A stretch of DNA of 36,789 nucleotides from Candidatus Margulisiibacteriota bacterium (lineage in GTDB: Bacteria; Margulisbacteria; WOR-1; XYC2-FULL-46-14; WPAF01). This document shows, piece by piece, positions 1-28,680 of the stretch; position 1 is the stretch's first letter; each line of letters opens with the position of its first letter. A program made the translations under genes and the position numbers. The notes under the pieces are model-generated. The model had not been told where the DNA came from. It worked only from the letters and a program-made list of their open reading frames with translations, and did no database searches. The stretch covers positions 1-36,789 of the forward strand of contig JBAZPF010000002.1 of assembly GCA_041648295.1 (NCBI GenBank). The letters run 5' to 3'.

Positions 1-603
1 GTAATATTCGTAAAAAGGATTTTCCTGGTCGTTTTCGATTATCCATTTGGCCATCAGCGCCCCACCCCTGCTTACGATATCCATCAGCCGCGGATGCTTT
101 TTTAAAGCATCGACCGAAGCTCTGGTCACCCCGCAATGGATGGTCATAAAGTCGACGCCTTCTTTGGCCTGCGACTCGACTACGGAAAACATTCCGTCTA
201 TTGTCATTTTATCTTCAACCATGGCTTGATAGATGGGAACGGTGCCCAGAGGAACCGGACAATTTTTAATTATTTGCTTCCGGATAGCGTTAATGTTGCC
301 GCCGGTAGATAGGTCCATTACGGCATCGGTCTTTGAATCTAGCGCAGCTTTAAGTTTCTTTAATTCTTCTTTTACATTGGGATAATCGGCGGAGGTGCCG
401 ATGTTCGCATTAACCTTTACCCTCATCCCTCTGCCTATGCCTACGCCTTTTGAATTCTTATGCAGAGGATTAAAAGGAATTGCAATTATTCCGGACGCAA
501 CACCACGAAGTATCTCTTTCTCCGGCAAATGTTCGTCGCGCGCGACCTGCCGAATTTCCCGGGTTATTATCCCCTTGAGGGCTTGTTGTCTCTGGGTTGG
601 CAT
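1..603 (-). CDS. thiC: Phosphomethylpyrimidine synthase ThiC, N-terminal ~200 aa; gene runs off the left edge
   Basis: Hand translation of the reverse strand from ATG 603-601 gives MPTQRQQALKGIITREIRQVARDEHLPEKEILRGVASGIIAIPFNPLHK...VKVNANIGTSADY...DAVMDLSTGGNINAIRKQIIKNCPVPLGTVPIYQA...GVDFMTIHCGVTRA, open to position 1. VNANIGTS, DLSTGG, PLGTVPIYQA and DFMTIHCG are ThiC signature blocks. It is missing from the ORF track only because it is truncated. Confidence 0.9.
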   Translation of the reverse strand, partial: MPTQRQQALKGIITREIRQVARDEHLPEKEILRGVASGIIAIPFNPLHKNSKGVGIGRGMRVKVNANIGTSADYPNVKEELKKLKAALDSKTDAVMDLSTGGNINAIRKQIIKNCPVPLGTVPIYQAMVEDKMTIDGMFSVVESQAKEGVDFMTIHCGVTRASVDALKKHPRLMDIVSRGGALMAKWIIENDQENPFYEYY

Positions 604-1124
604 TATGTCTTATATTCGCGGGTTTCTTCGGGGGGCCGTGCTTCTTTTGCCAGTTTCATTGCCAGGGCAACCGCTTCTTTTGCCGTATTGGCGCGATGGA
701 CCTTTTGGTCCATTTGTCCGCTGTGGTGGATAAATTGCCAGGTATTGAGGCCGACCACCGGGATTTCATATCCGAGCGCAAATGCAATCTCGGAAAGCGT
801 GCCGTAGCTTCCGCCGACCGCAAGAACCACATGACCGGTTTTGATGACCAGTTTATTCCTGGCATAACCGATGCCGGTGACGATCGGGTAATCGATGTAC
901 GGATTGGCTTCTTCGCGTTTGCTGCCGGGAAGGATCCCGATAGTCGTGCCGCCCGCGCTTTTTGCGCCCCTGCACGCGGACTCCATCGCTCCTTTTAACC
1001 CCCCGCAAACCAGAACCGCACCGGCTTTAGCTATCTCTGCCCCGACCTCTTCGGCCAGTTTGGAGATCTCAGGCGAGGCATGGCTTTCACCCACAACTGA
1101 TATGAATATTTTTTTATCTGGCAT
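603..1124 (-). CDS. LOG / TIGR00725-family Rossmann-fold protein (lysine-decarboxylase-like)
   Basis: 173-aa ORF. CGGLKGAMESACRGA and VGGSYGTLSEIAFAL match the GGxxGxM and (P)GGxGTxxE blocks of the LOG/TIGR00725 family. Its stop overlaps the thiC ATG (TAATG on the - strand at 605-601). Confidence 0.75.
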   Translation of the reverse strand: MPDKKIFISVVGESHASPEISKLAEEVGAEIAKAGAVLVCGGLKGAMESACRGAKSAGGTTIGILPGSKREEANPYIDYPIVTGIGYARNKLVIKTGHVVLAVGGSYGTLSEIAFALGYEIPVVGLNTWQFIHHSGQMDQKVHRANTAKEAVALAMKLAKEARPPEETREYKT

Positions 1125-1838: not shown

Positions 1839-3122
1839 ATGCCACAAACCATCTCTCAAAAAATATTAGCCAAGCACGCGGGATTAAAGTCCGTCGAACC
1901 CGGACAGCTGATCAACTGCAAAGTTGATCTCGTCCTGGGCAATGACATAACCGCCCCTACGGCAATAAAAGAATTTGAAAAGATCGGCGTAAGCAAAGTA
2001 TTTGATAAAAAGAAGATCTTCCTTGTGCCCGATCACTTTACCCCTGCCAAAGATATAAAGTCCGCCGAGCAGGTCAAGATGATGCGGCATTTTGCCAAGA
2101 AATACGGGATCGTCAATTTCTTTGAGATCGGCTGTATGGGAGTTGAACACGCATTACTGCCGGAGATCGGCGCGATAAAACCGGGTATGCTGATAATCGG
2201 CGCGGATTCGCACACCTGCACCTACGGCGCGCTGGGCGCATTTTCCACCGGCGTCGGGTCAACGGACATGGCGGCAGGAATGGCTACCGGAGAGGTTTGG
2301 TTCAAGGTCCCCGAACAATTAAAGTTTATTTACAAAGGAAAACTGCAGAAATGGGTCGAAGCAAAAGACCTGATCCTCTACACCATCGGGCAGATCGGCG
2401 TCGACGGCGCGCGTTACATGTCAATGGAATTCACCGGTCCAGTGATTGATAAACTTACGATCGAAGGCAGATTAACTATGGCGAACATGGCCATCGAGGC
2501 TGGCGGGAAAAATGGCATTTTTGCGCCGGATCGTAAAGTTTATGATTATTTAAAAAATAAAATAAAACTCAATAATTGGACATTGGAAATTGGACATTGG
2601 AAATTATTTGAATCTGATCCTGACGCCGAATATAAACAGGTTTATGAGTGGGATGTTTCAAAGATCGAACCGCAGATCTCCTTCCCTCACCTGCCCAGCA
2701 ACACCAAGCCGGTGAGCAAATGTAAACATATAAAGATCGACCAGTCGGTTATAGGCTCCTGCACCAACGGGCGGATTGAAGATATGCGGGTCGCGGCCAA
2801 AGTGCTTAAAGGCAAAAAGGTCCATCCCGATGTCAGATTAATTATTCTTCCGGCCACGCAGAACATTGAACTGCAAATGATCAAGGAAGGTTTAACGGAG
2901 ATTTTCATCAAAGCGGGCGCGGCGGTCTCCACCCCTACCTGCGGCCCCTGCCTCGGCGGCCATATGGGAATTTTGGCGGAGGGCGAAAGATCGATCGCGA
3001 CGACAAATAGAAACTTTGTCGGCAGAATGGGACATCCAAAATCTGAAGTTTATTTATCTAATGTGGCGGTGGCAGCGGCGTCAGCAGTAGCGGGACACAT
3101 CGTCAGTCCGGAAGACCTTTAA
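1839..3122 (+). CDS. leuC: 3-isopropylmalate / homoaconitate dehydratase large subunit (short archaeal-type LeuC/HacA)
   Basis: 427 aa. Aconitase-family blocks are [28 protein letters not shown] and [12 protein letters not shown] (Fe-S Cys ligands). No small-subunit gene is adjacent. Confidence 0.9.
2575..2602 (+). repeat. 7-bp x4 tandem repeat inside leuC (ATTGGAC ATTGGAA ATTGGAC ATTGGAA)
   Basis: Read directly; it is equivalent to a perfect 14-bp x2 duplication. It encodes [10 protein letters not shown] in what looks like a variable linker of the enzyme. Confidence 0.9.
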
Positions 3123-5330: not shown

Positions 5331-6071
5331 TTATTTTAGCCCCGCCAGCTTAATGCTTGCGGCATATTGAGCGAAAGGGACCTCGTCCAAGACTTTCAGC
5401 TTTTTAAATCCGGCTTTCTTTGCAAAGCCGATATAATCTTTTTTAAGCACCGCGCCGGCGATACAGCCAACATAAGCTTTTTTTGAATTCTTTACGGACG
5501 CGGGCAATTCTTTTAAGAGAACGATATCGGAGACCATCAATCGGCCGCCTTTCTTGAGAACGCGAAAGGCCTCTTTAAAGACCTTGGCTTTATCCGGCGA
5601 GAGATTGATAACACAATTGGAGATAACGATATCGATCGAATTATTTTCGACCGGCAACTGTTCGATCTCGCCCAGCCGGAATTCGACATTAGAATATTTC
5701 CCTTTGCGTACATTCTGCCTCGCCTTCTCGATCATTTCGGGCGTCATGTCGACGCCGATGACCTTGCCTTTTTTACCGACTCTTCTAGCGGCGAGGAAGC
5801 TATCGAAACCGGGACCGGAACCGAGGTCAAGGACGATTTCGCCCGGTTTGATGGATGCGAGCGCAATGGGGTTGCCACAACCGAGGCCGAGGTTGGCGCC
5901 TTCGGGAACCGATGATATCTCTTTATCGGAGTAGCCGATTGCTTTGCTGGCCGCTTTCGCTTCACTTCCACAGCACGGTTCATTCGCCGCACTGCAGCAA
6001 CAGGAACTACTCTTTTTAGCGATCACCCCGTAGTTTTCACGAACTTTTTGTTTTATATTTTTGGATTTCAT
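5331..6071 (-). CDS. arsM: Arsenite S-adenosylmethionine methyltransferase-like (ArsM family)
   Basis: 246 aa. Cys-rich N-terminus ([14 protein letters not shown]), SAM motif [11 protein letters not shown], and conserved Cys contexts [12 protein letters not shown] and VGCIAGA typical of ArsM. SD GAGGAG lies 6 nt upstream, preceded by TATAAT. Confidence 0.8.
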
Positions 6072-6850: not shown

Positions 6851-6966
6851 AATAATGAAAAATTTCAGAGAGAACCGGAAGAGAAGCCAACCAAACGAAT
6901 GGGATTTATTGCGGAATAACGTGCCGAGTCCGTACGGACGAGGCACACATCAATTCGTCATTAATC
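6851..6966 (+). repeat. Bracketing element, copy A (AATAATGAAA ... hairpin GTGCC-GA-GTCCGTACGGAC-GA-GGCAC ... ACATCAATTCGTCATTAATC)
   Basis: It shares ordered blocks with copy B at 13727-13785 (AATAAT..GAAA, TGCCGA, CGAGGCA, ACAT, ATTCGTCATTA, ATC). The hairpin lies at 6921-6946. Confidence 0.7.
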
Positions 6967-7011: not shown

Positions 7012-7650
7012 TCATGACAGATTTTGCAAAATAAATTCCTCTGTGAAGCTTATAAGACTTTTAACGTTTTGCATATCTATTTTGCTCCAATCAGCGTGAA
7101 AAGCCTTATTCCGCGTTTGCACATAAGAAGATAATAAACTAGCTTGCGGACCTTTAATTAATCCTTTGCTTTTAATAGCGTTAATCACTTCTGACATATC
7201 TTTTCCTTCTACATCCAATCCATTTAATGCTGAATATCTTTTTAATGCATCTTCAATTGCGGCCGAAGCTAAAACGGCAGCAACATCTTTTTGACCATCT
7301 TCAGCAATTGACTTCGACAACGCAAGAAAATCAGCAACCACACTACCAATAACTTGTTTTTCTAAATTAAAAATTAATTCATTACTTATATCTGATCGTA
7401 TGCCTTTTAAAACACCCAACAAATAATCTTTACATTCTTGCATAGAACTTGTTTGCCAAGAAACGGAATCATATATTTTAACTTTATAATCAGACATAGT
7501 TTTCAGCCTTGTATCATTCCTACCGTATAGATTCTCAATTATTGTCACTGTCCTAAAATAGACCTGGTTGATTATCTCAGGCGTAATTCCCACATTAAAC
7601 AGAGAAACAATTTCATCCACAATGCGCGAATAATCTTCTTTCTTTTTCAT
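7012..7650 (-). CDS. HEPN-like protein (Abi_C / DUF4145-like C-terminal domain with Rx4H motif)
   Basis: 212 aa. The C-terminal helical region ...AAIEDALKRYSALNG...LSSYVQTRNKAFHADW carries R-N-K-A-F-H (Rx4H), the HEPN catalytic signature. SD GGGGGA is upstream. The gene is AT-rich. Confidence 0.55.
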   Translation of the reverse strand: MKKKEDYSRIVDEIVSLFNVGITPEIINQVYFRTVTIIENLYGRNDTRLKTMSDYKVKIYDSVSWQTSSMQECKDYLLGVLKGIRSDISNELIFNLEKQVIGSVVADFLALSKSIAEDGQKDVAAVLASAAIEDALKRYSALNGLDVEGKDMSEVINAIKSKGLIKGPQASLLSSYVQTRNKAFHADWSKIDMQNVKSLISFTEEFILQNLS

Positions 7651-7971
7651 TTAACATTCCCCCAATATTTTATTTATTATATCATGCCTCCCCTTGCTTT
7701 TTCCTATAAAGGGCGTAGAATTTTAATGGTTTCAATTGAGTCTAAAGATGCTCGAAACATAATTTTGTGATGCTCATAATAATAGGGGCACAACAACAAG
7801 AAAAGGAATGGCGATATTTTGGCTGAGGAAAACAAACAGGGTAAAACGATAATAAAAAAGAATGCAGCAGATTACGATGCGATAATTCAAGCAGTCCGGA
7901 ATCGAGGAACAGAAAAAGAAGAGGTACAAGGAACCGACACTCCCCCTCTTGAGAAAGAGAAGGAATAGTAA

Positions 7972-8370
7972 ATGGATATTGTTGCCGATTTTTTCGCTAA
8001 ATATGGGCCACTTGTCATAAGTTTGGCAACTACAATAATTGCAATAGTTACGATATGGAAGCAGACAGACCAACAAAGGACTAATTTACTTTTTAATATC
8101 TATAAAGAAGAAAGGGGAATTCGCGCTCATATAAGTAATATGCTCAAAAAAGAAGAATTGTCTGATTTGGACGCGGAAACCTTCTTTAATCATTTTGAGA
8201 TGTTGGCTTATCTAGTCAATAAAAAGAAAATCAAGGAAGAGGATGTAAGGGCCATTTTTCTTCCAGGCATAAAGGCTGTATATTTGAACTTGAAAGAGAA
8301 GGAAAAAATAAAAGGGGATAAATACAAAGAAATAAATGAATTCATTGAAAGAATTCAGAGGAAATTATAA
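7972..8370 (+). CDS. Small membrane-anchored hypothetical protein
   Basis: 132 aa with an N-terminal TM helix (GPLVISLATTIIAIVTIW) and a Lys/Glu-rich soluble part. RBS AGAAGGAA is upstream. Confidence 0.6.
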   Translation: MDIVADFFAKYGPLVISLATTIIAIVTIWKQTDQQRTNLLFNIYKEERGIRAHISNMLKKEELSDLDAETFFNHFEMLAYLVNKKKIKEEDVRAIFLPGIKAVYLNLKEKEKIKGDKYKEINEFIERIQRKL

Positions 8371-8579
8371 TGACTGGAAAATCAAAGAAACCTAAAAATG
8401 GGACATCTCATAAAGAACATAATAAAAAAGTAAAGTTTTCTAATAAAGGTGTAATGCGTGGACGTTCAGGACAAGGCGCTTCAGTTGTTAATTGTTTTGG
8501 TTGCAAAGCAATGGATTATGATGAAATATTAAAAATACTGAAGCCCAATGGAAGAAAAAAGAAGAAGAAAAAAGCATAA
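8370..8579 (+). CDS. Lys-rich mini-protein, hypothetical
   Basis: 69 aa. The ATG directly abuts the preceding TAA stop (TAAATG). Very basic, ends in KKKKKKA, with a single CFGC. The coding status is plausible but unproven. Confidence 0.4.
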   Translation: MTGKSKKPKNGTSHKEHNKKVKFSNKGVMRGRSGQGASVVNCFGCKAMDYDEILKILKPNGRKKKKKKA

Positions 8580-8676
8580 CCACTTTAAAATACAAAATAA
8601 ACCTTTCAGAGCAACAAACCTCATCAGCACTCAGGCATCATTGCTTTTTTCCGTAAACAGCGTAGAATTTCTGCAT

Positions 8677-9078
8677 ATGATGCATGGGAAAGATAATCCA
8701 GTAAACATCTTAATCATTTATGATGAGCCTAGTGTTGTGGAATCTCTTAAAATGATTTTTTTGATCAAGGACTACAATGTTTTATCCGCCAGAAATGCTA
8801 AACAAGGAATGGAATTAATTAGCCCTGATATAAATATCATTTTTTTAGGGTTTCGTATACATGATTTAAATATTATTAATGCTATCCATGAGATTAAGAA
8901 ATTAAACCCCAATATTCCAATAATTTTATTTTCTGCTTATGAAAATAATCAATTTATAGCCGATTTGAAAAATGCTGGCGCATATGAATTCCTTTGTATG
9001 CCTTTTATGATGGAACAAGCATATGAGCTTATTTATAAGGCAATTGATTTTCAAGAGAAGCATAAAAAAGAAGGTTAA
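8677..9078 (+). CDS. Stand-alone response-regulator receiver domain, atypical (pseudo-receiver)
   Basis: CheY-like pattern NILIIYDEPSV...INIIFLGFRIHDLN...PIILFSAY...GAYEFLCMPF. The phospho-acceptor Asp position is Gly (FLG) and the conserved Lys of KP is Met (CMP). The start is taken at ATG 8677 (MMHGKD); the track ORF begins at 8548, but that extension is low-complexity. Confidence 0.7.
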   Translation: MMHGKDNPVNILIIYDEPSVVESLKMIFLIKDYNVLSARNAKQGMELISPDINIIFLGFRIHDLNIINAIHEIKKLNPNIPIILFSAYENNQFIADLKNAGAYEFLCMPFMMEQAYELIYKAIDFQEKHKKEG

Positions 9079-9132: not shown

Positions 9133-9175
9133 CCCCCCATCTTTTGGTGTCAATGTCTTGGAAGAGGAAGGTGGG
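9133..9175 (+). repeat. Island motif copy 1 (ccccccatcttttggtgtcaatgtcttggaagaggaaggtggg)
   Basis: Read directly. It folds as an imperfect hairpin (C-rich arm / TCTT ... AAGA / GGTGGG arm). It begins 55 nt past the receiver gene stop. Confidence 0.9.
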
Positions 9176-9183
9176 AATGAGGG

Positions 9184-9239
9184 GCTGAAGGACTAAGGGA
9201 CTGAGGAACTAAGGAACTAAGGAACTAGGGACAAGGGAC
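9184..9239. repeat. 8-bp-period degenerate array, GGACTAAG type (7 units)
   Basis: gctgaagg actaaggg actgagga actaagga actaagga actaggga caagggac; the phase is kept throughout. Confidence 0.9.
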
Positions 9240-9252
9240 TATTATTGCCGCT

Positions 9253-9711
9253 TTACTGATAGATCTTCTTTCCTCGTCTAAAACTTGGGTCGGGATCCCA
9301 GGCGCTCGGACCTGCCAGGTCTTCGATAAGATCAAAAGAATCGGCGCTTTCCGTAAAAGCGTCCAGCTTTTCCGGTAGCCGACTTAACCTATCGAGCAAG
9401 CCTCGCGCTTTCATATTGACAGCCGCGAACATTCTCAAATCGTCGCCCTTCAGCTTCAGCGCCGGATTTATTCGGATCGTTTCCCGAACATCGCGCAACA
9501 TCCGCAGCGAAATAGTCGCCATCTTCTTAAGTTGAACAGCCATCGTTTTATTGATCGTTCCGGAATGACCCAGATCTTCCGCTTTGCTGATAGCCGCTTC
9601 AAACGTGGAGAGCTTTTGCTGATAAGCCGGAAAGCTCGATCTCATAGCGAATATTCTTCGGGAAAATATTTGCCCTGCGTTAACAGGATTGATACCGGCT
9701 AGTTTTGGCAT
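9253..9711 (-). CDS. Hypothetical protein
   Basis: 152-aa ORF with no recognised motif. GATAAG lies 5 nt upstream of the ATG and there is no SD, so it is possibly leaderless. Confidence 0.55.
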   Translation of the reverse strand: MPKLAGINPVNAGQIFSRRIFAMRSSFPAYQQKLSTFEAAISKAEDLGHSGTINKTMAVQLKKMATISLRMLRDVRETIRINPALKLKGDDLRMFAAVNMKARGLLDRLSRLPEKLDAFTESADSFDLIEDLAGPSAWDPDPSFRRGKKIYQ

Positions 9712-9878
9712 ACTGTCTTATCTGCGCTATTTAAGAATAATTTCAGTTCTTTCTAAAACACTGTGTGTGTATACTTCCCATTTGACAAAGATCCGCTTTA
9801 GATCAACCAGTATGGTTTGTCTGTCTGCTGGGAATTAATGCCGTTGGGGTGCTGGAGATCATCTATATCTCGTTCTTT

Positions 9879-9932
9879 CAGAAGAAACAGAAGAAACAGA
9901 AGAAACAGAAAAACCAAAGAATTCAAATCAAA
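9879..9932. repeat. 9-bp-period array (CAGAAGAAA x3 perfect, then 3 decayed units)
   Basis: cagaagaaa cagaagaaa cagaagaaa cagaaaaac caaagaatt caaatcaaa. It overlaps the stop codon of the 9928-10620 gene. Confidence 0.9.
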
Positions 9933-10620
9933 GGATATAACTGATCCCTATCAGGAAATTCGAAACCCCGCCATTAAAATGCGAAGACGACGGCGTACCG
10001 TCAATATTCCCGGCTACCGGAACATTTATGAACCCGGGAGCATATGAAAAGCTTAACAATAAATTCCAGAAATATTTTTTAACCGTGAGAGGAAATGTGA
10101 CCATGTATCCCGTGCCGCTGAAACTGGAATAACTATCAATATAGGGGCTCTGGCCATATATTTTGCTGCCTGTCTTTCTTATGTTCAGATAGTCAATGCG
10201 AACGCCAAGATCATATTCAATAAGCGAAGCAGCCGAGCGGAGATCCAAAACATAGAGCAGCTCCAGAAAATAATTATTTAAGAATAAATTATAGGCTTCA
10301 TCATTGGTGCCGCCGAAAAAAGAAGCGTTATGCCGGCCCCAGCCTTCAGAAAAAACCCCGGTCCCAAGAGAATATTTAAATCTGTTCTTTGACGGGAAGC
10401 TTAATTTAAGCTCAATCCCGGTAAGATTGGCATTTATTGGCTCATTACCCGTAAGGACAGCCGCATTTGGAGCGGTCAAAAATGAATAATTGACCTCAAT
10501 GTTCCTATTTTTAAAATTACTCAAGAGATCGGCAGCTTCATCGGCCAAAGAAATATTGGTCGAGGCTATGGTTAGAAATAACAGAAAAATCAGTATTTTT
10601 TTATTATAATCATAAGTCAT
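9928..10620 (-). CDS. Putative outer-membrane beta-barrel protein
   Basis: 230 aa. Signal peptide (KKILIFLLFLTIASTNISLA), alternating hydrophobic/aromatic beta-strand-like pattern, rich in G/Y/S/N. No family assigned. Confidence 0.6.
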   Translation of the reverse strand: MTYDYNKKILIFLLFLTIASTNISLADEAADLLSNFKNRNIEVNYSFLTAPNAAVLTGNEPINANLTGIELKLSFPSKNRFKYSLGTGVFSEGWGRHNASFFGGTNDEAYNLFLNNYFLELLYVLDLRSAASLIEYDLGVRIDYLNIRKTGSKIYGQSPYIDSYSSFSGTGYMVTFPLTVKKYFWNLLLSFSYAPGFINVPVAGNIDGTPSSSHFNGGVSNFLIGISYIL

Positions 10621-10626
10621 GTCGTA

Positions 10627-10655
10627 ATTGTCCCACCCTGCTCTTTTGGTGTCAA
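10627..10655 (-). promoter_or_regulatory. Motif-embedded promoter: TTGACA-17-GACAAT, 6 nt before ATG 10620
   Basis: The - strand reads TTGACA (10655-10650), a 17-nt spacer ccaaaagagcagggtgg, GACAAT (10632-10627), tacgac, then ATG. The alternative is that GGGTGGGA acts as a weak SD. Confidence 0.45.
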
Positions 10656-10678
10656 TGTCTTGGAAGAGGAATGTGGGA
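10632..10678 (+). repeat. Island motif copy 2 (cccaccctgctcttttggtgtcaatgtcttggaagaggaatgtggg)
   Basis: Read directly. Hairpin CCCAC-CCTG-CTCTT-loop-AAGAG-GAAT-GTGGG. 10642-10709 matches 9140-9207 at 64 of 68 positions by hand alignment. Confidence 0.9.
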
Positions 10679-10685
10679 GCGAGGG

Positions 10686-10717
10686 GCTGAGGGACTAAGG
10701 GACTGAGGATTCAGCAC
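10686..10717. repeat. 8-bp-period array, GGACTAAG type (3-4 units)
   Basis: gctgaggg actaaggg actgagga ttcagcac. Confidence 0.8.
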
Positions 10718-10726
10718 AAATATTCC

Positions 10727-10755
10727 TTGACTTGGTATAACTTATAAGTTATATT
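10727..10755 (+). promoter_or_regulatory. Sigma70-like promoter of the XRE-Fic operon (TTGACT-17-TATATT)
   Basis: TTGACT at 10727-10732, 17-nt spacer, TATATT at 10750-10755. SD GGGGG lies upstream of ATG 10808. Confidence 0.65.
10736..10753. promoter_or_regulatory. Operator-like perfect 18-bp palindrome O1 (TATAACTTATAAGTTATA) inside the promoter spacer
   Basis: Self-complementarity checked by hand. It overlaps the spacer and the -10 element. Confidence 0.7.
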
Positions 10756-10768
10756 TATTGCTTAAGAT

Positions 10769-10786
10769 TATAACCTATAGGTTATA
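10769..10786. promoter_or_regulatory. Operator-like perfect 18-bp palindrome O2 (TATAACCTATAGGTTATA)
   Basis: Same half-site TATAAC..GTTATA as O1. The centres are 33 bp apart, and O2 lies in the predicted 5' UTR. Confidence 0.7.
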
Positions 10787-10807
10787 TTTGCATAAAAGGG
10801 GGTAAAT

Positions 10808-11257
10808 ATGGCAGATTTAAAGGGGTTAAAATTAAAGCAAATTTCCGAAGCGGTCAAAGCAGTCCGCCCAGTGCCGGCTGAAAAGATAGGCCAGCGGATC
10901 CGTGATATCAGGGAAGCTCTCGGTATGACGCAAAAACAACTGTCAAAAAGACTAAAGATCAGCCAGCCGCTGCTTTCGCGAATAGAAGAAAATGCGGAGG
11001 CCTGCGCGATTAAAACTTTAGTTAAAATAGCTCAAGGGCTGGAATGTGAATTTATGGGGGTTATAGTTTCAAAAGAAGGCTTGGAGAAAACCATCAATAA
11101 ACAGGCCGAAATAAAAGCCAGGGAGATGCTAAAACGGACCTTTGCCAATATGGCTATGGAAAAACAGGCGCCAACCGATAATGCGTACGCCTATCAATTT
11201 AAAAAGCTTACCGAGGAACTGGCAAACAATCCGGGACCTAACCTCTGGGAGAAATAA
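10808..11257 (+). CDS. XRE-family HTH protein, 'mobile mystery protein A'-like (putative antitoxin/regulator)
   Basis: 149 aa. HTH_3 pattern IGQRIRDIREALGMTQKQLSKRLKISQPLLSRIEENAE. The stop abuts the ATG of the Fic gene (TAAATG). Confidence 0.8.
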   Translation: MADLKGLKLKQISEAVKAVRPVPAEKIGQRIRDIREALGMTQKQLSKRLKISQPLLSRIEENAEACAIKTLVKIAQGLECEFMGVIVSKEGLEKTINKQAEIKAREMLKRTFANMAMEKQAPTDNAYAYQFKKLTEELANNPGPNLWEK

Positions 11258-11851
11258 ATGCCTTTTTTGGAAGATGTCCCCGGGGCAACGCCCGTAGAAG
11301 ACATTTCAGATCTTATCCCTTCCCATATAACGACCCGTTCAGAATTGAACGAATGGGAAGCCGCCAATATCCTTAAAGCGACCAGACACTATTTAACGGA
11401 AAAAAGAAAACTTGAGATCGATGTTGCCTGGTTGAAAAAACTGCATAAGGAAATGTTCGATGAAACATGGAAATGGGCGGGCCAATTCAGGCAAAAGAAT
11501 TTCAATTTGGGCATTGATTGGCATAATATCAATGACCAAGTAAAGGCGCTTATTGATGATATGGTTTTTTGGAAAAAGGGGCCGATGGATCTAAGCATTT
11601 TTGATCAAAGCATTCGCGTCCATCATCGGCTTGTTAAAATCCACCCTTTCGTGAATGGTAATGGCCGGCATGCGCGATTGGCATCTGATATATTTCTTTA
11701 TTATAATAACCATAAACTTCCGACCTGGCCCAGCCAATCATTGCTTGAAGAAAGCGATGTAAGAAAACGTTATATCACTGCCCTTCAGGAAGCAGATAAG
11801 GGAAATTACAAACTGTTGGAAAAATTCACTGATGATTTGATAAGTAAATAA
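11258..11851 (+). CDS. Fic-domain protein, 'mobile mystery protein B'-like (putative toxin)
   Basis: 197 aa. Fic motif HPFVNGNGRHARL (HPFxxGNGRxxR). The N-terminal GATPVEDISDLIPSHITTRSELNEWEAANI is typical of the TIGR02613 family as I recall it. Confidence 0.85.
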   Translation: MPFLEDVPGATPVEDISDLIPSHITTRSELNEWEAANILKATRHYLTEKRKLEIDVAWLKKLHKEMFDETWKWAGQFRQKNFNLGIDWHNINDQVKALIDDMVFWKKGPMDLSIFDQSIRVHHRLVKIHPFVNGNGRHARLASDIFLYYNNHKLPTWPSQSLLEESDVRKRYITALQEADKGNYKLLEKFTDDLISK

Positions 11852-11852
11852 T

Positions 11853-11880
11853 CCCCCCACCCCCATCTTTTGGTGTCAAC
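11853..11880 (+). repeat. Island motif copy 3 (ccccccacccccatcttttggtgtcaac)
   Basis: Read directly. It begins 2 nt past the Fic stop codon. Confidence 0.85.
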
Positions 11881-11883
11881 TCT

Positions 11884-11897
11884 TCAGCAGATCAGGA
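11884..11897 (+). repeat. 14-bp direct repeat TCAGCAGATCAGGA, copy 1
   Basis: Identical to 11951-11964. Confidence 0.9.
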
Positions 11898-11898
11898 T

Positions 11899-11920
11899 AC
11901 CTGCCTGCCGGCAGGCAGGT
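11899..11920. repeat. Perfect 22-bp palindrome ACCTGCCTGCCGGCAGGCAGGT
   Basis: Self-complementarity checked by hand. It lies between the two 14-bp direct repeats. Confidence 0.9.
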
Positions 11921-11950
11921 CAGGGAATCAGTGGGAAGAGAATCGGCGTA

Positions 11951-11964
11951 TCAGCAGATCAGGA
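11951..11964 (+). repeat. 14-bp direct repeat TCAGCAGATCAGGA, copy 2
   Basis: Identical to 11884-11897. It is followed by the small hairpin TCAGG-AAAAA-CCTGA. Confidence 0.9.
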
Positions 11965-11968
11965 AAAA

Positions 11969-12032
11969 CCTGATGCCCTGATTATCTGATATTCTGCCTG
12001 CTGATATTCTGATAATCTGATATCCTGCCGAG
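11969..12032. repeat. 8-bp-period array, CTGATAWT type
   Basis: cctgatgc c ctgattat ctgatatt ctgcctg ctgatatt ctgataat ctgatatc ctgccgag. One unit is 7 nt. Confidence 0.85.
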
Positions 12033-12055
12033 CCCCCTCTTTTAGTGTCAAATTG
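12032..12055 (+). repeat. Island motif copy 4 (gccccctcttttagtgtcaaattg)
   Basis: Read directly; a diverged copy in the same orientation. Confidence 0.75.
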
Positions 12056-12070
12056 TTTGTATTTTGCTTT

Positions 12071-12118
12071 TTGGTTATTGGAATTTGTTTGGTTATTGTT
12101 TCTTGATTATTGGTTATT
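12071..12118. repeat. TTGGTTATT word x3 at 18- and 21-bp spacing
   Basis: TTGGTTATT occurs at 12071, 12089 and 12110, in T/G-rich low-complexity sequence directly 3' of the ICMT-like gene. Confidence 0.8.
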
Positions 12119-12134
12119 AAAGAAGCTGGGAATT

Positions 12135-12842
12135 TTACCAAATCAATGGGATAAGCCGGTATCGGGCCTTCTTTGTATATTCAACATACCCTTCGAGCTC
12201 TTTTTGCAACGTCGCATCCTCCAGCGCGGTGCGGATCACAAACAATAAAGCGGTAAAGAGTGAAGCGAAAAGCGCGTAAAAAGAGCCGACGATCATTGGA
12301 AATGAAAAATACAGTAAGATGAACGCGATATAGCCCGGATGCCGGACAATGGCATAAGGCCCGGTAGAAACTACCTTTTGCCCCCGCTCCTTCTGGATCC
12401 GGACCCCAAGCTCAAAGAATTTGTTCTCCATAAGCGCCCACTCGGAAAGGAACATCGCAAAAAGCAGAGAGATCACCCCGGCGACCATCCACCAGATATT
12501 AAGCTCCGACCAGTTATATCTCCCGACATCAAGCCCGGCAATGATCGGTATCAGGATCATTGTGACGATCGAATAGAAGACCGCAAACAATTTGTCCCAG
12601 ACCTTCGGCATCTTCATTTCACCTCGGGCATTGACCACTTCGGCCATCTCCGGGAAGCGGGTAAACAACAGAATAAAGAAGAACGTCTGACAAAGCATTA
12701 TAACAATAAAATAAACCCAGGCGCGCATAAGATCAATCCTTCCGGCCGCGGCAAAAAAGAGGACGGCATTTAATAACATGACCAGATAGATCACGATGAT
12801 CCGTTTATAACCCGAGCTTGTGAGCTTTGGCTTTTCGTTCAT
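12135..12842 (-). CDS. Isoprenylcysteine carboxyl methyltransferase (ICMT/PEMT)-family membrane methyltransferase
   Basis: 235 aa, multi-pass membrane protein. VVSTGPYAIVRHPGYIAFILLYFSFPM matches the ICMT-family TxGxYxxxRHPxY block. Confidence 0.75.
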   Translation of the reverse strand: MNEKPKLTSSGYKRIIVIYLVMLLNAVLFFAAAGRIDLMRAWVYFIVIMLCQTFFFILLFTRFPEMAEVVNARGEMKMPKVWDKLFAVFYSIVTMILIPIIAGLDVGRYNWSELNIWWMVAGVISLLFAMFLSEWALMENKFFELGVRIQKERGQKVVSTGPYAIVRHPGYIAFILLYFSFPMIVGSFYALFASLFTALLFVIRTALEDATLQKELEGYVEYTKKARYRLIPLIW

Positions 12843-12848
12843 GAGGAT

Positions 12849-12877
12849 ATTCTCCCACCGTGGTCTTTTTGTGTCAA
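12849..12877 (-). promoter_or_regulatory. Motif-embedded promoter: TTGACA-17-GAGAAT, 6 nt before ATG 12842
   Basis: The - strand reads TTGACA (12877-12872), a 17-nt spacer, GAGAAT (12854-12849), atcctc, then ATG. The alternative is that GGGAG serves as an SD 9 nt upstream. Confidence 0.45.
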
Positions 12878-12884
12878 TGTGTGG
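12852..12884 (+). repeat. Island motif copy 5 (ctcccaccgtggtctttttgtgtcaatgtgtgg)
   Basis: Read directly. Confidence 0.85.
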
Positions 12885-12890
12885 AAAGGG

Positions 12891-12946
12891 GCTAGGAACT
12901 GTGGGACTAAGGGGCTAAGGGACTAAGGGATTGAGGAATCAGGGAT
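12891..12946. repeat. 8-bp-period array, GGACTAAG type (7 units)
   Basis: gctaggaa ctgtggga ctaagggg ctaaggga ctaaggga ttgaggaa tcagggat. Confidence 0.9.
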
Positions 12947-12959
12947 TATAATGGGATTA

Positions 12960-12988
12960 TTGCATATTTACTCGCAATGCCATATAAT
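12960..12988 (+). promoter_or_regulatory. Promoter TTGCAT-17-TATAAT, 7 nt before ATG 12996 (leaderless)
   Basis: TTGCAT at 12960-12965 and TATAAT at 12983-12988. There is no SD in the 7 nt before the ATG. Confidence 0.55.
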
Positions 12989-12995
12989 TATCACC

Positions 12996-13217
12996 ATGGT
13001 TCCCGAACAAAAAAGAAAACATCAAGATTTTGAGTGGTTAGGGAAAAATATGCATAAATTACAGCAAAAACATGCCGGTAAAGTAGTGGCGGTTGTCAAT
13101 AAACATGCAAGCATCGGTAAAAATGCCATTGAGGCTTATAAAATATCCAGGAAACAATATCCCGACAATGAACCAGTAATGTCTGCGATCCCCACTAAAG
13201 ATGCCCTCTTATTATGA
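12996..13217 (+). CDS. DUF5678-like small protein
   Basis: 73 aa from ATG 12996. EWLGKNMHKLQQKHAGKVVAVVNKHASIGKNAIEAYKISRKQYPDNEPVMSAIP fits the DUF5678 pattern as I recall it. The track start at 12951 lies inside the repeat array. Confidence 0.65.
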   Translation: MVPEQKRKHQDFEWLGKNMHKLQQKHAGKVVAVVNKHASIGKNAIEAYKISRKQYPDNEPVMSAIPTKDALLL

Positions 13218-13615
13218 TCAAATACGACTGGCATGAGGAGTATTCCGAATCCTTCGGATTAGTCAAAAGACCGGTTGCTGAAATCCATATGAAAGATAAA
13301 AATAAGATCTGGCGCGCAATCAACATGTATGTGGATTCTGGCGCTGATGTAAGCATTATTCAAAATAGTTTTGGTGAATTATTCGGACATAATGTTGAAA
13401 AAGGCCGTAAAATCAGGTTAAAAGGCATTGGCAAAGAAGAAATAATTGCTTATATCCATAAAATGGATTTACTGATCGGCGCTCATGAAGTAAATATTGA
13501 AGTGGCAATTGGCGAAAATGATAACGTCCCAAATGTTCTTGGCCGCAAGGGTGTCTTTAATTTTTTCGAAATCCAGTTTAAAAATAAAGAAGAAGCTACT
13601 CACTTTTTGAAATAA
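13214..13615 (+). CDS. Retropepsin-like (clan AA) aspartic protease
   Basis: 133 aa with YVDSGADVSII (the D-S/T-G-A active-site motif). It overlaps the upstream gene by 4 nt (ATGA). Confidence 0.75.
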   Translation: MIKYDWHEEYSESFGLVKRPVAEIHMKDKNKIWRAINMYVDSGADVSIIQNSFGELFGHNVEKGRKIRLKGIGKEEIIAYIHKMDLLIGAHEVNIEVAIGENDNVPNVLGRKGVFNFFEIQFKNKEEATHFLK

Positions 13616-13640
13616 TCACATTAGCTACCAAACTGTTTAG

Positions 13641-13672
13641 CCACCCCCATCTTTTGATGTCAATGCTTTGGG
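13641..13672 (+). repeat. Island motif copy 6 (ccacccccatcttttgatgtcaatgctttggg)
   Basis: Read directly. It begins 26 nt past the protease stop codon. Confidence 0.85.
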
Positions 13673-13676
13673 AAAT

Positions 13677-13711
13677 AATTACGAATTGCGAATTACTAAT
13701 TATGAATTGTT
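13677..13711. repeat. 7-bp-period array AATTNNN (5 units)
   Basis: aattacg aattgcg aattact aattatg aattgtt. Confidence 0.9.
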
Positions 13712-13726
13712 GTGTCTCTGCGCGAC

Positions 13727-13785
13727 AATAATATGAAATGCCGAACGAAGCGAGGCATACATTCATTCGTCATTAGTCATTAATC
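13727..13785 (+). repeat. Bracketing element, copy B (AATAATATGAAA-ATGCC-GA-ACGAAGC-GA-GGCAT-ACATTCATTCGTCATTAgtcattaATC)
   Basis: Same ordered blocks as copy A. The hairpin lies at 13738-13758 and its closing pair is A-T, versus G-C in copy A. It includes a TCATTNN 7-bp x3 array at 13763-13783. Confidence 0.7.
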
Positions 13786-13803: not shown

Positions 13804-13832
13804 TTGACAAATATTCGCGGGAATAAGATAAT
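13804..13832 (+). promoter_or_regulatory. Sigma70-like promoter TTGACA-17-GATAAT for the small membrane protein gene
   Basis: TTGACA at 13804-13809 and GATAAT at 13827-13832. SD GGAGG at 13839-13843 lies 8 nt before ATG 13852. Confidence 0.65.
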
Positions 13833-17819: not shown

Positions 17820-19244
17820 ATGAAAATGGGAATAAGACCGACTTCCGGATTTTTTGACTTCTGGACCTCTAGACTTCTGGACTTCTGGACCTTAAAAAAT
17901 AGGTCTAGAGGTCTAGCGGTCAAGCAGTCTAGCTGCCTGGCGGTCATGCTCGGCCTTCTTATCTTACAGTCCGCCTGCCCCGCCCTGACCCTTAAAGAAA
18001 GCATAGATATCGCTTTAAAGGAGAATCCGTCGCTCCAGGCCGCGCAAAAAAAACTTAATGCCGCGGATGCCCGTTTTGCCCAGGCGGTCGGTTCTTTCTT
18101 CCCGACTATAAAAGTTGACGGGAGCATCAGCAGAAACTACCAGCAGCCTTCGACCGTTCAGATCACGAGCCAAACCTCTGCGGGAGCGATCACCCAAAAT
18201 CTGTCGTTTGGCACCGATTCCACGTCAGACATGAAAAGCATAAAAACTTCCTTGAACCAGCCGATCTTTGTCCCTGCCCTTTTCCCGGCTGTAAAGATCG
18301 CCCAAAAAAGCCTGGACCTGGCAAAAGAAGACTTTAAAAAGGCAACGCTTGAAACTTCTTTTAACGCCATCCAGGCTTATTTTAATGTGATAAAAGCTGA
18401 AAAAATGGCAACATTCGCGGAACAATCAAAAGAAATGGCGAATTCTCATCTGGACCAGGTAAAAGCAATGCTTGCCGCCGGCGTCGTCACCCGGGCCGAC
18501 CTGCTCCGAACAGAAGTTCAGTTTGATAATTCCGAAGTCGCTTTGACGCGGGCAAAAAATGCCCTTGAACTGGCAAAGGACGCGTTCAATAACGCTCTCG
18601 GGCGCGACCTGGAAACAGATATTAAGCTCAAGGAAGAAGGCTTTGCCGGCACGGTTTCAAATATTCCCGATTACAAAGACCTTCTTAAGCTGGCGTTTGA
18701 ATACCAGCCCGAATGGAAACAATTTATATTATCGAAACAAATAGGCGAAGAAAATGTCTGGGTAACAAAAACCGGTTACCTGCCAAATGTCTTCCTTTCC
18801 GGCCAGACCGGAAATCAGATCGTGGACTACCCCACATTCAAAACGGACACGAATTCATGGTCGATTATCGGCTCGGCTTCCTGGACGCTGTTTGACGGCC
18901 TCGCCACCCAGAATAAAATAAAAGAAGCGGAAGCCAACCTTGATGCCCAGCAAGCGTCCGAAGAACAGATCAAGAACGGGATCACGCTTCAAGTCCGCGA
19001 CGCTTATTTAAGTCTCACAAGTTCGCTTGATACCATAAATTCCGCAAAAAAAGCGGTCGAATCCGCCGAAGAAAATGAAAAAGTTTCTTCCCTGCGTTTT
19101 GCCTCCGGCGTCGGCACCAACATTGAAGTGCTCGACGCCCAGGTTTCCCTCACTCAGGCAAGGACAAATTACCTGCAATCTCTTTTTGATGTGGAGATTG
19201 CAAAGGCCAAACTTAATAAAGTCGTCGGATGGGAGGTCATTTAA
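17820..19244 (+). CDS. TolC-family outer membrane efflux protein (start ambiguous: ATG 17820, 17826 or 17946)
   Basis: TolC/OEP-like repeats start at LKESIDIALKENPSLQAAQ. The signal/lipobox-like LLILQSAC follows M43. The first 42 codons are encoded by the 8-bp repeat array. TATAAT lies at 17800-17805. Confidence 0.85.
   Translation: MKMGIRPTSGFFDFWTSRLLDFWTLKNRSRGLAVKQSSCLAVMLGLLILQSACPALTLKESIDIALKENPSLQAAQKKLNAADARFAQAVGSFFPTIKVDGSISRNYQQPSTVQITSQTSAGAITQNLSFGTDSTSDMKSIKTSLNQPIFVPALFPAVKIAQKSLDLAKEDFKKATLETSFNAIQAYFNVIKAEKMATFAEQSKEMANSHLDQVKAMLAAGVVTRADLLRTEVQFDNSEVALTRAKNALELAKDAFNNALGRDLETDIKLKEEGFAGTVSNIPDYKDLLKLAFEYQPEWKQFILSKQIGEENVWVTKTGYLPNVFLSGQTGNQIVDYPTFKTDTNSWSIIGSASWTLFDGLATQNKIKEAEANLDAQQASEEQIKNGITLQVRDAYLSLTSSLDTINSAKKAVESAEENEKVSSLRFASGVGTNIEVLDAQVSLTQARTNYLQSLFDVEIAKAKLNKVVGWEVI
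17856..17943. repeat. 8-bp-period array, 11 units (GACTTCTG type, then TCTAGNGG type), inside the 5' end of the TolC-like ORF
   Basis: gacttctg gacctcta gacttctg gacttctg gaccttaa aaaatagg tctagagg tctagcgg tcaagcag tctagctg cctggcgg. Confidence 0.9.
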
Positions 19245-28636: not shown

Positions 28637-28640
28637 TTCT

Positions 28641-28680
28641 CTGATCTCCTGATAATCTGATACTCTGATATTCTCATACT
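28641..28680. repeat. 8-bp-period array, CTGATAWT type (5 units), filling the spacer between the two GH57 genes
   Basis: ctgatctc ctgataat ctgatact ctgatatt ctcatact. On the - strand the last units form the SD AGGAG, 9 nt before ATG 28636. Confidence 0.9.

Follow-up and report, generated by a model that had tools for sequence, protein, structure and literature searches.

Tandem repeats of heptamer-class units have been known in Cyanobacteria since 1990, the year in which Mazel and colleagues reportedly gave consensus sequences for STRR1-3. Long simple sequence repeats (LSSRs), with units of 5 to 11 nt among which heptamers dominate, are plentiful in Cyanobacteria (Mrazek et al. 2007, as summarized in PMC4679880). 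GGGGA(C/T)T repeats have been described in Nostoc and GGGAATC repeats in Xanthomonas (PMC4692102), and TAACTGA direct repeats, for which a regulator-binding role was proposed, occur in marine Beggiatoaceae, Cyanobacteria, and Bacteroidetes (PMC4679880). The Margulisbacteria/Saganbacteria-like phyla are siblings of Cyanobacteria (PMC6349859). Here, we report repeats of the cyanobacterial type in this sibling phylum, in a 36,789-nt stretch of DNA (the window; Candidatus Margulisiibacteriota bacterium, assembly GCA_041648295.1, contig JBAZPF010000002.1, positions 1 to 36,789 of the forward strand), where they are fused to a portable, predicted promoter core at what look like the joints of gene cassettes. 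The description of the repeats is solid, while their proposed function is read from sequence in about ten loci of one clade.

Several other kinds of element invite comparison. Integron attC sites have a conserved end and a variable middle, carry inverted R''/R' cores of the type GTTRRRY, and go together with an integrase; the metboxes of MetJ are 8 bp long. For the ribbon-helix-helix (RHH) protein omega2 of pSM19035, arrays of 6 to 10 unspaced WATCACW heptads are described (PMC4627068). Reused and putatively mobile promoters are known (PMC3575422), as are intergenic palindromic repeats of the REP/REPIN/BIME type (PMC3116915).

Short tandem repeats in the window and its relatives

Tandem Repeats Finder (TRF; period of 6 to 10, score of at least 36, at least 2.8 copies) found 12 arrays with a 6- to 10-bp period in the window, compared to a mean of 0.05 and a maximum of 1 in 100 dinucleotide-preserving shuffles of the same sequence. 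The arrays make up 13.6% of its 2,885 intergenic bases. An initial annotation had pointed out periodic tracts between 9184 and 13783, beside most copies of a conserved motif, and had called for a control of shuffled composition, which proved to be nearly array-free. TRF places an array at every site named there, and all of these sites sit in spacers between open reading frames (ORFs), in line with the claim that they are non-coding. The tracts had also been called strictly periodic; periodicity was confirmed, strictness was not, because TRF reports indels of 2 to 9% in several arrays. The units are degenerate, with match levels of 69 to 90% across arrays. Nor are arrays restricted to motif sites, since motif-less ones lie at 2574-2605 (in coding sequence), 9879-9914, 13763-13782, 17840-17932, and 28649-28678.

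The window arrays are STRR/LSSR-type short tandem repeats with units of 7 to 8 bp, as in Cyanobacteria. Like the cyanobacterial repeats, they are head-to-tail, often degenerate units of the 7-nt class in numbers beyond what composition yields, with many unit families per genome; they are mostly intergenic with some members inside genes, sometimes form inverted pairs, include G-rich members that can form G-quadruplexes, and occur in a phylum that is sibling to Cyanobacteria. They are also dispersed, being found at 2574, 9879, 17840, and 28649 in the window and in L099, L113, L114, and L115 to L119 (L-numbers denote the metagenome loci or contigs that were compared with the window; the related sample amounts to about ten loci of one narrow clade and about 200 kb of DNA in total). 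The initial annotation did not recognize them as a described class, but tandem repeats of 5 to 11 nt, mainly heptamers, have been described in all four of the bacterial groups mentioned above, Cyanobacteria, Xanthomonas, Beggiatoaceae, and Bacteroidetes. One relative carries a GGGGACT heptamer identical to the Nostoc repeat (L053, 4096-4127), and the window units are 8-mer relatives of described families (GGGACTAA, CTGATAAT), not identical to them. The window differs from the STRR pattern in that many units are 8 bp rather than 7 bp long, in that the host belongs to a non-photosynthetic sibling lineage, and in the fusion of arrays to a conserved promoter core at cassette joints, of which no description was found for STRR.

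A second likeness is to the TAACTGA repeats, whose core CTGATAA equals the CTGATAWT unit of the window minus one base, which come in short sets of 2 to 6 units, and some of which lie a few nucleotides before a start codon, as does the window array at 28640-28680. Unlike them, the window units are phased at 8 nt, each made of a conserved pentamer plus a 3-nt linker that is free to vary, and most copies lie upstream of a -35 hexamer or in inverted pairs; moreover, the sense strand at 28640-28680 carries ATCAG, the orientation complementary to that of the Beggiatoaceae repeats.

How widespread are such arrays? Those of 7 to 8 bp number 17 in 88.9 kb of motif-family loci, whereas 483.5 kb of unrelated metagenome loci, picked up by chance, hold 7 (Poisson P = 6e-14). 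Arrays are also present in relatives that lack the motif (L099, L113, and L114): in L099, ATTACGG (x3.9) stands 14 nt ahead of a predicted leaderless TolC promoter, and L113 has two paralogous AGAACGT/ACGTTCT palindromes, each after a stop codon. Five loci beside the same methyltransferase gene are richer still, with up to 11 units per array. The more distant L101 (MetH identity of 68%) is almost array-free, indicating that the trait is patchy. Overall, 7- to 8-bp arrays are endemic to the Margulisbacteria/Saganbacteria-like lineage and fill much of its spacer DNA. In a WOR-1 genome (L114, 14912-14953), CTGATATT (x5) follows a TATAAT and directly adjoins a tRNA-Tyr gene at its 5' end, so that this array would be part of the leader of the tRNA precursor.

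The best named relatives of the window MetH are from Candidatus Margulisbacteria/Margulisiibacteriota, Saganbacteria, and WOR-1, and one 76% match carries the label Omnitrophota; the ArsM-like methyltransferase (5331..6071) has 82% and 73% matches labelled Margulisiibacteriota. In L101, whose MetH is labelled Saganbacteria in one source, gene order agrees with that of the window over more than 10 genes.

Arrays inside genes occur in whole-codon multiples, in frame in coding loops. The aconitase-family gene of the window has 7 aa more than its L101 homologue (21 nt, three units), and the inter-domain linker of MetH holds AAATCCG-type heptamers in L099 (4038-4067) and L103 (1001-1032). The linker between the Hcy and pterin domains of the window MetH (15056-15149) is the only region that differs from L105, with 44 differences in 94 nt and a net change of +9 nt, and the L105 version has a CCCCTCGCCCTCTGGGAGAGGGG palindrome resembling the G-rich array family.

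Arrays lie upstream of a predicted promoter core

The motif CTTTTGGTGTCAATG, counted at up to 3 mismatches, occurs six times between 9141 and 13665, always on the plus strand, compared to 1.16 copies expected by chance; a seventh match, at 34123, is a chance match. An array called by TRF starts 14 to 35 nt to the right of the motif at five of the six copies, and at the sixth (11867) ATCAG units stand next to the motif, with the TRF call beginning only 106 nt on. Random intergenic placement gives at least five such proximities with P = 0.0026. All five motif-bearing spacers hold arrays, compared to 3 of the 12 others of at least 40 bp (Fisher 0.009). Shuffles and spacer statistics thus support the earlier proposal that the listed tracts are not random and go together with the motif.

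On the minus strand, the motif reads as TTGACA and then a conserved spacer of always 17 nt, ccaaaagaKgggggtgg; TTGACA itself is unchanged in 19 of 19 motif copies. In the copies at 10643 and 12865, the spacer is followed by a TG-preceded GACAAT or GAGAAT, with an ATG exactly 6 nt on, the layout of a leaderless sigma-70 promoter as far as sequence tells. A consensus promoter scan picked out 12877-12849 and 10655-10627, each scoring 10/12 with the TG. The motif is therefore predicted to be a sigma-70-type promoter core on the minus strand, with transcription starting at or next to the ATG to give a leaderless mRNA. It follows that the arrays would lie upstream of the -35 (about -50 to -110); the initial annotation, which saw an array following each motif, was right about the proximity but had the order reversed. 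The features are as follows.

9133..9156, minus strand: motif copy 1, TTGACA at 9148-9153, spacer conserved, -10 degenerate (ATGAGA).
9160..9239: GGRACTRR array of 8-bp units, G-rich on the plus strand, upstream of the copy 1 -35 (TRF 9188-9231, x5.6, 86% matches); no hairpin potential (z = +1.1).
10626..10658, minus strand: motif copy 2, TTGACA-17 nt-(TG)GACAAT-6 nt-ATG, predicted leaderless promoter of gene 9928..10620.
10660..10717: GGRACTRR array (TRF 10681-10708, period 8, x3.5) flanked by divergent -35 hexamers at 10650-10655 (minus) and 10727-10732 (plus, XRE-Fic operon); canonical G-quadruplex motif at 10675-10701.
11850..11881, minus strand: motif copy 3, consensus -35 and spacer, GGGGAT in the -10 place; abuts the Fic stop codon.
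11882..12032: paired inverted arrays, in minus-strand order ATCAG 8-mers, T-rich loop, CTGAT 8-mers (TRF 11985-12027, CTGATAWT, period 8, x5.5, 69% matches); a ladder-like imperfect palindrome (z = -2.9), kept in L029, L077, and L119.
12027..12053, minus strand: motif copy 4, the most diverged, GCAGGA in the -10 place; an ATCAG arm directly follows.
12071..12118: TTGGTTA(T) array (TRF period 7, x7.3, 69% matches), 19 nt upstream of the copy 4 -35 and just past the stop codon of 12135..12842.
12848..12880, minus strand: motif copy 5, TTGACA-17 nt-(TG)GAGAAT-6 nt-ATG, predicted leaderless promoter of the ICMT-family gene 12135..12842.
12891..12946: GGRACTRR array (TRF 12903-12930, period 8, x3.5, 90% matches) flanked by divergent -35 hexamers at 12872-12877 (minus) and 12960-12965 (plus; promoter TTGCAT-17-TATAAT-7-ATG of the DUF5678 gene); second canonical G-quadruplex motif at 12903-12929.
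13637..13665, minus strand: motif copy 6, CTAAAC in the -10 place; faces the 3' end of 13214..13615.
13677..13711: AATTACG heptamer array (TRF 13677-13708, period 7, x4.6), 14 nt upstream of the copy 6 -35.
13737..13783: GC hairpin, then TCATTAG heptamers (TRF 13763-13782, period 7, x2.9, weak), 21 nt upstream of an ordinary plus-strand promoter at 13804-13832 (TTGACA-17-GATAAT).
2574..2605, plus strand: AATTGGA heptamers in the aconitase-family gene (TRF).
9879..9914: motif-less 9-bp CAGAAGAAA array between two minus-strand genes (TRF).
17840..17932: motif-less paired inverted arrays GACTTCTG and AGGTCTAG upstream of the TolC-like gene (TRF); a ladder hairpin on folding (z = -3.6).
28640..28680: motif-less ATCAG-type 8-mers filling the 42-bp junction of two minus-strand genes (TRF); the array stops 6 nt short of an ATG.

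Leaderless transcripts look normal for this organism, as TGnTAnAAT-N6-ATG also stands before unrelated window genes (603..1124, MetH at 14250.., and 34343..; similar at 12996.. and 28679..30814), and the same layout is found before MetH and the TolC-like gene in relatives. More generally, many operon-heading genes have TGnTAnAAT 6 to 8 nt before the start codon and no Shine-Dalgarno sequence (minus strand, 603-1124 and 28679-30814; plus strand, 12996, 14250, and 34343).

In the four other window copies, a perfect -35 and spacer are joined to ATGAGA, GGGGAT, GCAGGA, or CTAAAC instead of a -10. Three of them run into a plus-strand gene from its 3' side; one is copy 1, which faces the response-regulator gene 8548..9078 and hence drives no gene; the fourth (12039) enters the ATCAG element. 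A similar division is found in relatives. Nearly every copy with an intact -10 has a start codon on the same strand 5 to 55 nt on (L014, L053, L077 with three copies, L093, L115, L117, and L118); in L049 the start is 52 nt on and the contig then ends, and L097 has a 24-aa ORF only. Where the -10 is degenerate, most copies have another array ahead of them or point at a convergent gene from its 3' side. L115 to L119, which were fetched independently, have arrays just upstream of the -35 at six of seven motif copies, and each of their three GAGAAT copies precedes a gene start. The combination of a constant motif with a variable array thus recurs in independent related loci, as the initial annotation had described it.

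The same 29-nt core stands before genes for ICMT, an unknown 230-aa protein, a CAAX protease, TspO, an ORC/CDC6-like ATPase, and others, so that one core precedes non-homologous genes. This resembles mobile promoters, in which a near-identical promoter, non-contact spacer included, is found upstream of unrelated genes within and across genomes. Unlike those, the copied unit ends before the -10 and carries a variable tandem-repeat block, and the modules are concentrated in one island with fixed orientation.

A degenerate 19-mer matched 95 metagenome stretches, most of them by chance, for example in primase coding sequence, and the extended motif TTCTCCCACCCCCMTCTTTTGGTGTCAA is present in 8, often in 2 to 3 copies each and with arrays beside them. 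A scan of species-representative genomes gave one doubtful match only, in a Dehalococcoidia metagenome-assembled genome, and human primers were the only literature matches to the motif sequence itself. A terminal inverted repeat of a miniature inverted-repeat transposable element or insertion sequence was rejected, as the copies lie on one strand with no inverted partner; phage or plasmid origin was rejected as well, because the six viral-contig matches are due to chance and lack the extended motif.

Within one motif copy of the window, positions 10639-10641 and 10656 (TGC>CCA and T>G) account for four of the six differences from L001 and all four from L002. The triple change brings the spacer closer to the consensus of the family, suggesting that motif copies have undergone gene conversion with one another.

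Modules at the joints of a variable island

Over 68 bp that take in the array, the copies at 9141 and 10643 share 94% identity, and what surrounds them is unrelated. Core and array move as one, in dispersed modules of 70 to 150 bp. All-against-all BLAST placed several extended-motif loci in the same chromosomal neighbourhood of related strains: L075 and L014 share the left flank of the window (methyltransferase 5331..6071 and the gene for a 222-aa protein), L049 shares the right flank (a small membrane gene before MetH), and L077 shares the ICMT gene. In L101 the aconitase gene leads almost directly to MetH, whereas in the window about 10.7 kb lie between them and hold all six motif copies.

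Island content differs between loci and strains and consists of small accessory genes. The cargo includes XRE-Fic, DUF5678 with a retropepsin-like protease, ICMT, CAAX protease, TspO, NUDIX, and DeoC, as well as an ORC/CDC6-like ATPase, PEGA, HEPN, DUF7670, and ORF6N with a 23S-IVP/bAvd-like protein. L014 and L075 are 96.5% identical up to the '...gggggtgg' of the motif and unrelated past that point, and the four copies of the ATCAG module (window, L029, L077, and L119) diverge at the same place. From the other side, L119 and L118 agree at 99.1% starting with the DUF7670 gene, and their homology is lost exactly at the upstream edge of the TATAAT-N6-ATG of that gene. Because homology breaks at the edge of the -10, the exchangeable unit looks like a "-10 plus leaderless ORF" cassette, with the array and the -35/spacer block as the joint. 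The modules thus appear to sit where exchangeable cassettes join, within a hypervariable island that lies at 9.1 to 13.8 kb in the window and was encountered in about ten related loci.

Such an arrangement recalls integron arrays, in which co-oriented repeats with a conserved end and a variable middle cluster at the borders of small accessory cassettes, toxin-antitoxin-like pairs included, and cassette content differs between close strains. Here, too, repeats bound strain-variable cassettes (L014 versus L075, and the ATCAG-module copies). Unlike integron cassettes, these carry their own -10 and lie on both strands, and no integrase accompanies them. Pfam revealed no recombinase domain in the window (30 ORFs plus precomputed Pfam of the other called genes), and precomputed Pfam revealed no integrase, transposase, or recombinase in about 45 kb of island DNA from five related loci. 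Membership of the attC family was rejected on the lack of an integrase and of inverted core sites (RYYYAAC ... GTTRRRY) and on the position of all six copies on one strand; no GTTRRRY was seen by eye in the aligned motif copies. A search for homologues of the 222-aa flank protein, made to find island variants, returned one cluster only.

The window island is bracketed by a direct repeat of about 38 nt (6929-6966 and 13739-13777; L075, 961-1005), composed of a GC hairpin and then ACATTCATTCGTCATTA(G), and homology between the window and L075 ends within the TCATT array of this repeat. Possible explanations are an att-like duplication and a common unit of terminator plus array. Another small dispersed repeat is the 33-nt stretch at 7691-7723, in the spacer between 7012..7650 and 7972..8370, which is 94% identical to the L029 spacer at 3173-3205. 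Two 18-bp palindromes, TATAACTTATAAGTTATA and TATAACCTATAGGTTATA (10736-10753 and 10769-10786), overlap the predicted promoter of the XRE-Fic operon and are probably autoregulatory operators of the XRE protein.

Pairs of genes for an ORF6N (DNA-binding domain) protein and a four-helix protein like 23S-rRNA-IVP/bAvd recur in the related islands, with an array of the AGGAACTA type between the genes, C-rich arrays after the IVP gene, and then the motif; L113 has a lone IVP gene with the same palindromic AGAACGT array element on both sides. The sites are as follows.

L115: 561-1560.
L117: 2757-3700.
L118: 3241-3730 and 4786-5935.
L119: 1112-1955.
L077: 4345-5750.
L113: 12407-13100.

Arrays may be spread by this gene pair and bound by ORF6N; both genes are absent from the window. 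A literature search for a link between 23S-IVP proteins and heptamer arrays found nothing.

Unit number, folding, and constraint

L001 (15.1-kb contig, sample ERZ27249422) and L002 (5.0-kb contig, run SRR8449827) are 99.9% identical to the window over their 15.1 kb and 5.0 kb, gapless, with 6 and 4 single-base differences. In L105 (3.8-kb contig from the same run as L002), the arrays at 12891-12946 and 13677-13783 are identical to those of the window, all 44 differences falling in the MetH linker, and L099 and L100 have equal copy numbers. No array has an indel in these three near-identical contigs. Together with the four-way alignment of the ATCAG element below, these comparisons rule out fast slippage as far as assemblies show.

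The ATCAG element and its motif are common to the window, L029, L077, and L119 at 79 to 86% pairwise identity. In their alignment, ATCAG/CTGAT pentamers kept at an 8-nt phase are invariant in 55 of 59 columns, compared to 24 of 51 columns of the 3-nt linkers (P = 9e-8). No indel of 8 nt is present; length changes consist of single bases and of a perfect 20-nt palindrome, CCTGCCTGCCGGCAGGCAGG (11900-11919), which is extra in the right ATCAG arm of the window copy and was found in none of 103 loci searched except the near-identical copies L001 and L002. In the Logan assembly of SRR8449827, L002 and L105 end right at the ATCAG palindrome (window about 11923-12076), a break that could reflect trouble in assembling a hairpin or repeat, or heterogeneity at the site.

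This layout of unspaced 7- to 8-bp units, direct and inverted, with a conserved core in promoter regions, is shared with the operators of RHH proteins such as omega2 and MetJ, and the window arrays lie upstream of the -35. Unlike RHH operators, they end 14 to 35 nt before the -35 without overlapping it, many unit families stand side by side, and similar arrays occur in coding DNA. A domain search among the window ORFs found no gene for an RHH or other cognate binding protein; ORF6N DNA-binding proteins were seen in related islands only.

Folding separates two kinds of arrays. The paired inverted ones (window 11882-12032 and 17836-17936; elements in L029, L077, L049, and L053) form ladder-like hairpins of 5- to 6-bp helices with z from -2.5 to -4.1, whereas unidirectional arrays (GGRACTRR, TTGGTTA, GAGAAGGAGG) show no tendency to fold (z from -1 to +1), which excludes hairpins as a general explanation. 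Compensatory changes in the ATCAG hairpin were looked for and excluded, as its linkers vary without compensation. Like REP/REPIN elements, the paired arrays are dispersed, imperfectly palindromic, intergenic, and often placed past stop codons, with two paralogous copies in L113; unlike them, their arms are built from phased units of 7 to 8 nt, and the unidirectional arrays are not palindromic at all. No RAYT-type transposase was seen in the window and related-locus DNA examined. Only two canonical G-quadruplex motifs occur in the whole window, both in G-rich arrays between divergent -35 hexamers. G-quadruplexes are excluded as a general explanation as well, since the canonical motif is present in two arrays only and the A/T-rich families are unable to fold into one. 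As two of the three G-rich arrays lie between divergent -35 hexamers and outside predicted transcripts, any role that they have must be exerted on DNA.

Of the functions suggested in the initial annotation, tandem protein-binding sites are partly favoured in view of the conserved phased ATCAG cores, as is structural or insulator DNA in view of the hairpin and G-quadruplex potential; contingency tracts are contradicted by the degenerate units and by a unit number that is constant both in near-identical assemblies and in copies 79 to 86% alike.

Possible roles of the modules

What could the modules do? Our preferred reading, to which we give a probability of about 0.5, is that they supply the -35 and spacer to leaderless cassettes and that the arrays act on DNA upstream and ease cassette exchange, without serving as slippage switches. 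The arrays would be a phased multi-site platform for protein binding just upstream of the promoter, and/or sequence prone to non-B DNA (cruciforms and G-quadruplexes) between closely spaced promoters, and, as repeated homology, they might ease the exchange of cassettes.

Several observations weigh against this. The promoter is a prediction from the DNA sequence. Four of the six window copies keep a perfect -35/spacer with no usable -10 or gene, for which a pure promoter role is insufficient. Arrays also occur where there is no promoter, at an operon junction, in a likely 5' untranslated region, and in coding loops, and many of them may have no promoter-linked role. The proximity of arrays to motifs is only moderately beyond chance within the island alone (P = 0.038), the conserved pentamers could stem from hairpin pairing or concerted evolution instead of protein contacts, no candidate array-binding protein came out of the domain search of window ORFs, and the sample is limited to about ten loci of one narrow clade.

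Some weight, well short of even odds, belongs to the view that the arrays are functionless by-products of a mutational habit of the lineage, such as polymerase slippage or a template-switching bias, which seeds arrays that then hitchhike with a duplicated promoter spacer. It would account for arrays in all types of unconstrained DNA, including coding loops with multiples of three units, for the many unrelated and degenerate unit sequences (69 to 90% matches), for the fast turnover of the MetH linker, and for the arrays of motif-less relatives. It sits poorly with phased pentamers that are kept while linkers drift in four copies about 80% alike with no unit-size indels, with the finding that GGRACT-type and ATCAG-type arrays keep their place and direction with respect to the -35 from genome to genome, and with the presence of arrays in five of five motif spacers but only 3 of 12 others.

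Rather unlikely, in our judgment, is an analogue of attC in which motif plus array is the cut-and-join site of an unknown site- or structure-specific recombinase, the promoter being secondary. Such a joint would explain why two independent module families lose homology at one precise point, between ...GGGGGTGG and the -10, why copies with no -10 and no gene still have a perfect core, and why the island holds mixed small accessory genes that vary between strains and is bracketed by a direct repeat. It also fits the orientation of the motif, since copies are co-oriented within each locus and all 15 strong copies in seven loci face the methyltransferase gene. On the other hand, neither the 36.8-kb window nor about 45 kb of five related islands encodes an integrase, transposase, or recombinase domain, the motif has no dyad symmetry, inverted partner, or GTTRRRY-type core, and the L119/L118 joint is equally sharp with no motif at all. 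More doubtful still is a bolder form of the idea, that array-motif linkers are the working joints of an integrase-less cassette shuffling in Margulisbacteria-like bacteria, with the arrays as the recognition or structure-forming part; "-10 plus leaderless ORF" cassettes would then be excised and rejoined precisely where the -35/spacer block ends, a block that would complete the promoter of each of them, and arrays might spread via the ORF6N and 23S-IVP/bAvd-like gene pairs that they flank in relatives.

We consider it quite improbable that the arrays work at the RNA level, as 3'-end hairpins (REP-like terminators or stabilizers) or as phased sites for a translational regulator, a role suggested for the TAACTGA repeats. 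Paired inverted arrays do fold as long ladder hairpins and often lie just past stop codons (L113; window 11882-12032, between convergent genes), and the array at 28640-28680 and the AGGAACTA arrays of relatives abut start codons and carry a Shine-Dalgarno-like GGA. But the G-rich arrays between divergent promoters would not be transcribed, unidirectional arrays are unfolded (z about 0), the hairpins have no trailing U-run, a terminator scan found no terminator at the arrays, and linkers in the hairpin arms vary without compensation. A known RNA family was excluded, as Rfam gave no match at gathering score or at E <= 1; no tRNA or tmRNA was found in the window.

Finally, phase variation, in which gain or loss of units by slippage would switch or tune the flanking promoters, can practically be dismissed: tandem short units do stand near promoters, some of them divergent, and host-adapted bacteria are known to use slippage-prone repeats upstream of genes as a switch, but contingency repeats are near-perfect and lie in frame or between -35 and -10, whereas these are imperfect (69 to 90% matches) and start 14 to 35 nt upstream of the -35, and they show no indels across the 15.1-kb (ERZ27249422), 5.0-kb, and 3.8-kb (SRR8449827) contigs, equal copy numbers in L099 and L100, and no 8-nt indels among four copies 79 to 86% alike.

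Implications for repeats in Cyanobacteria and their siblings

Repeats of the same kind as the heptamer-class repeats of Cyanobacteria fill about 14% of spacer DNA here. Compared to the cyanobacterial literature, this lineage offers new handles: phased pentamer cores that are apparently constrained, arrays at a fixed place just upstream of the -35 and fused to a copied promoter core, and arrays at the exact joints of what look like exchangeable leaderless cassettes. Should neither cassette exchange nor a binding protein prove to be involved, an annotation rule remains, namely, that such tracts in this clade are ordinary spacer DNA and not coding, CRISPR-like, or phase-variation switches. If one of them is, this would reveal a new way in which bacteria wire acquired genes for expression, and if cassettes are indeed shuffled at these joints, the same mechanism might underlie the long-unexplained STRR repeats of Cyanobacteria.

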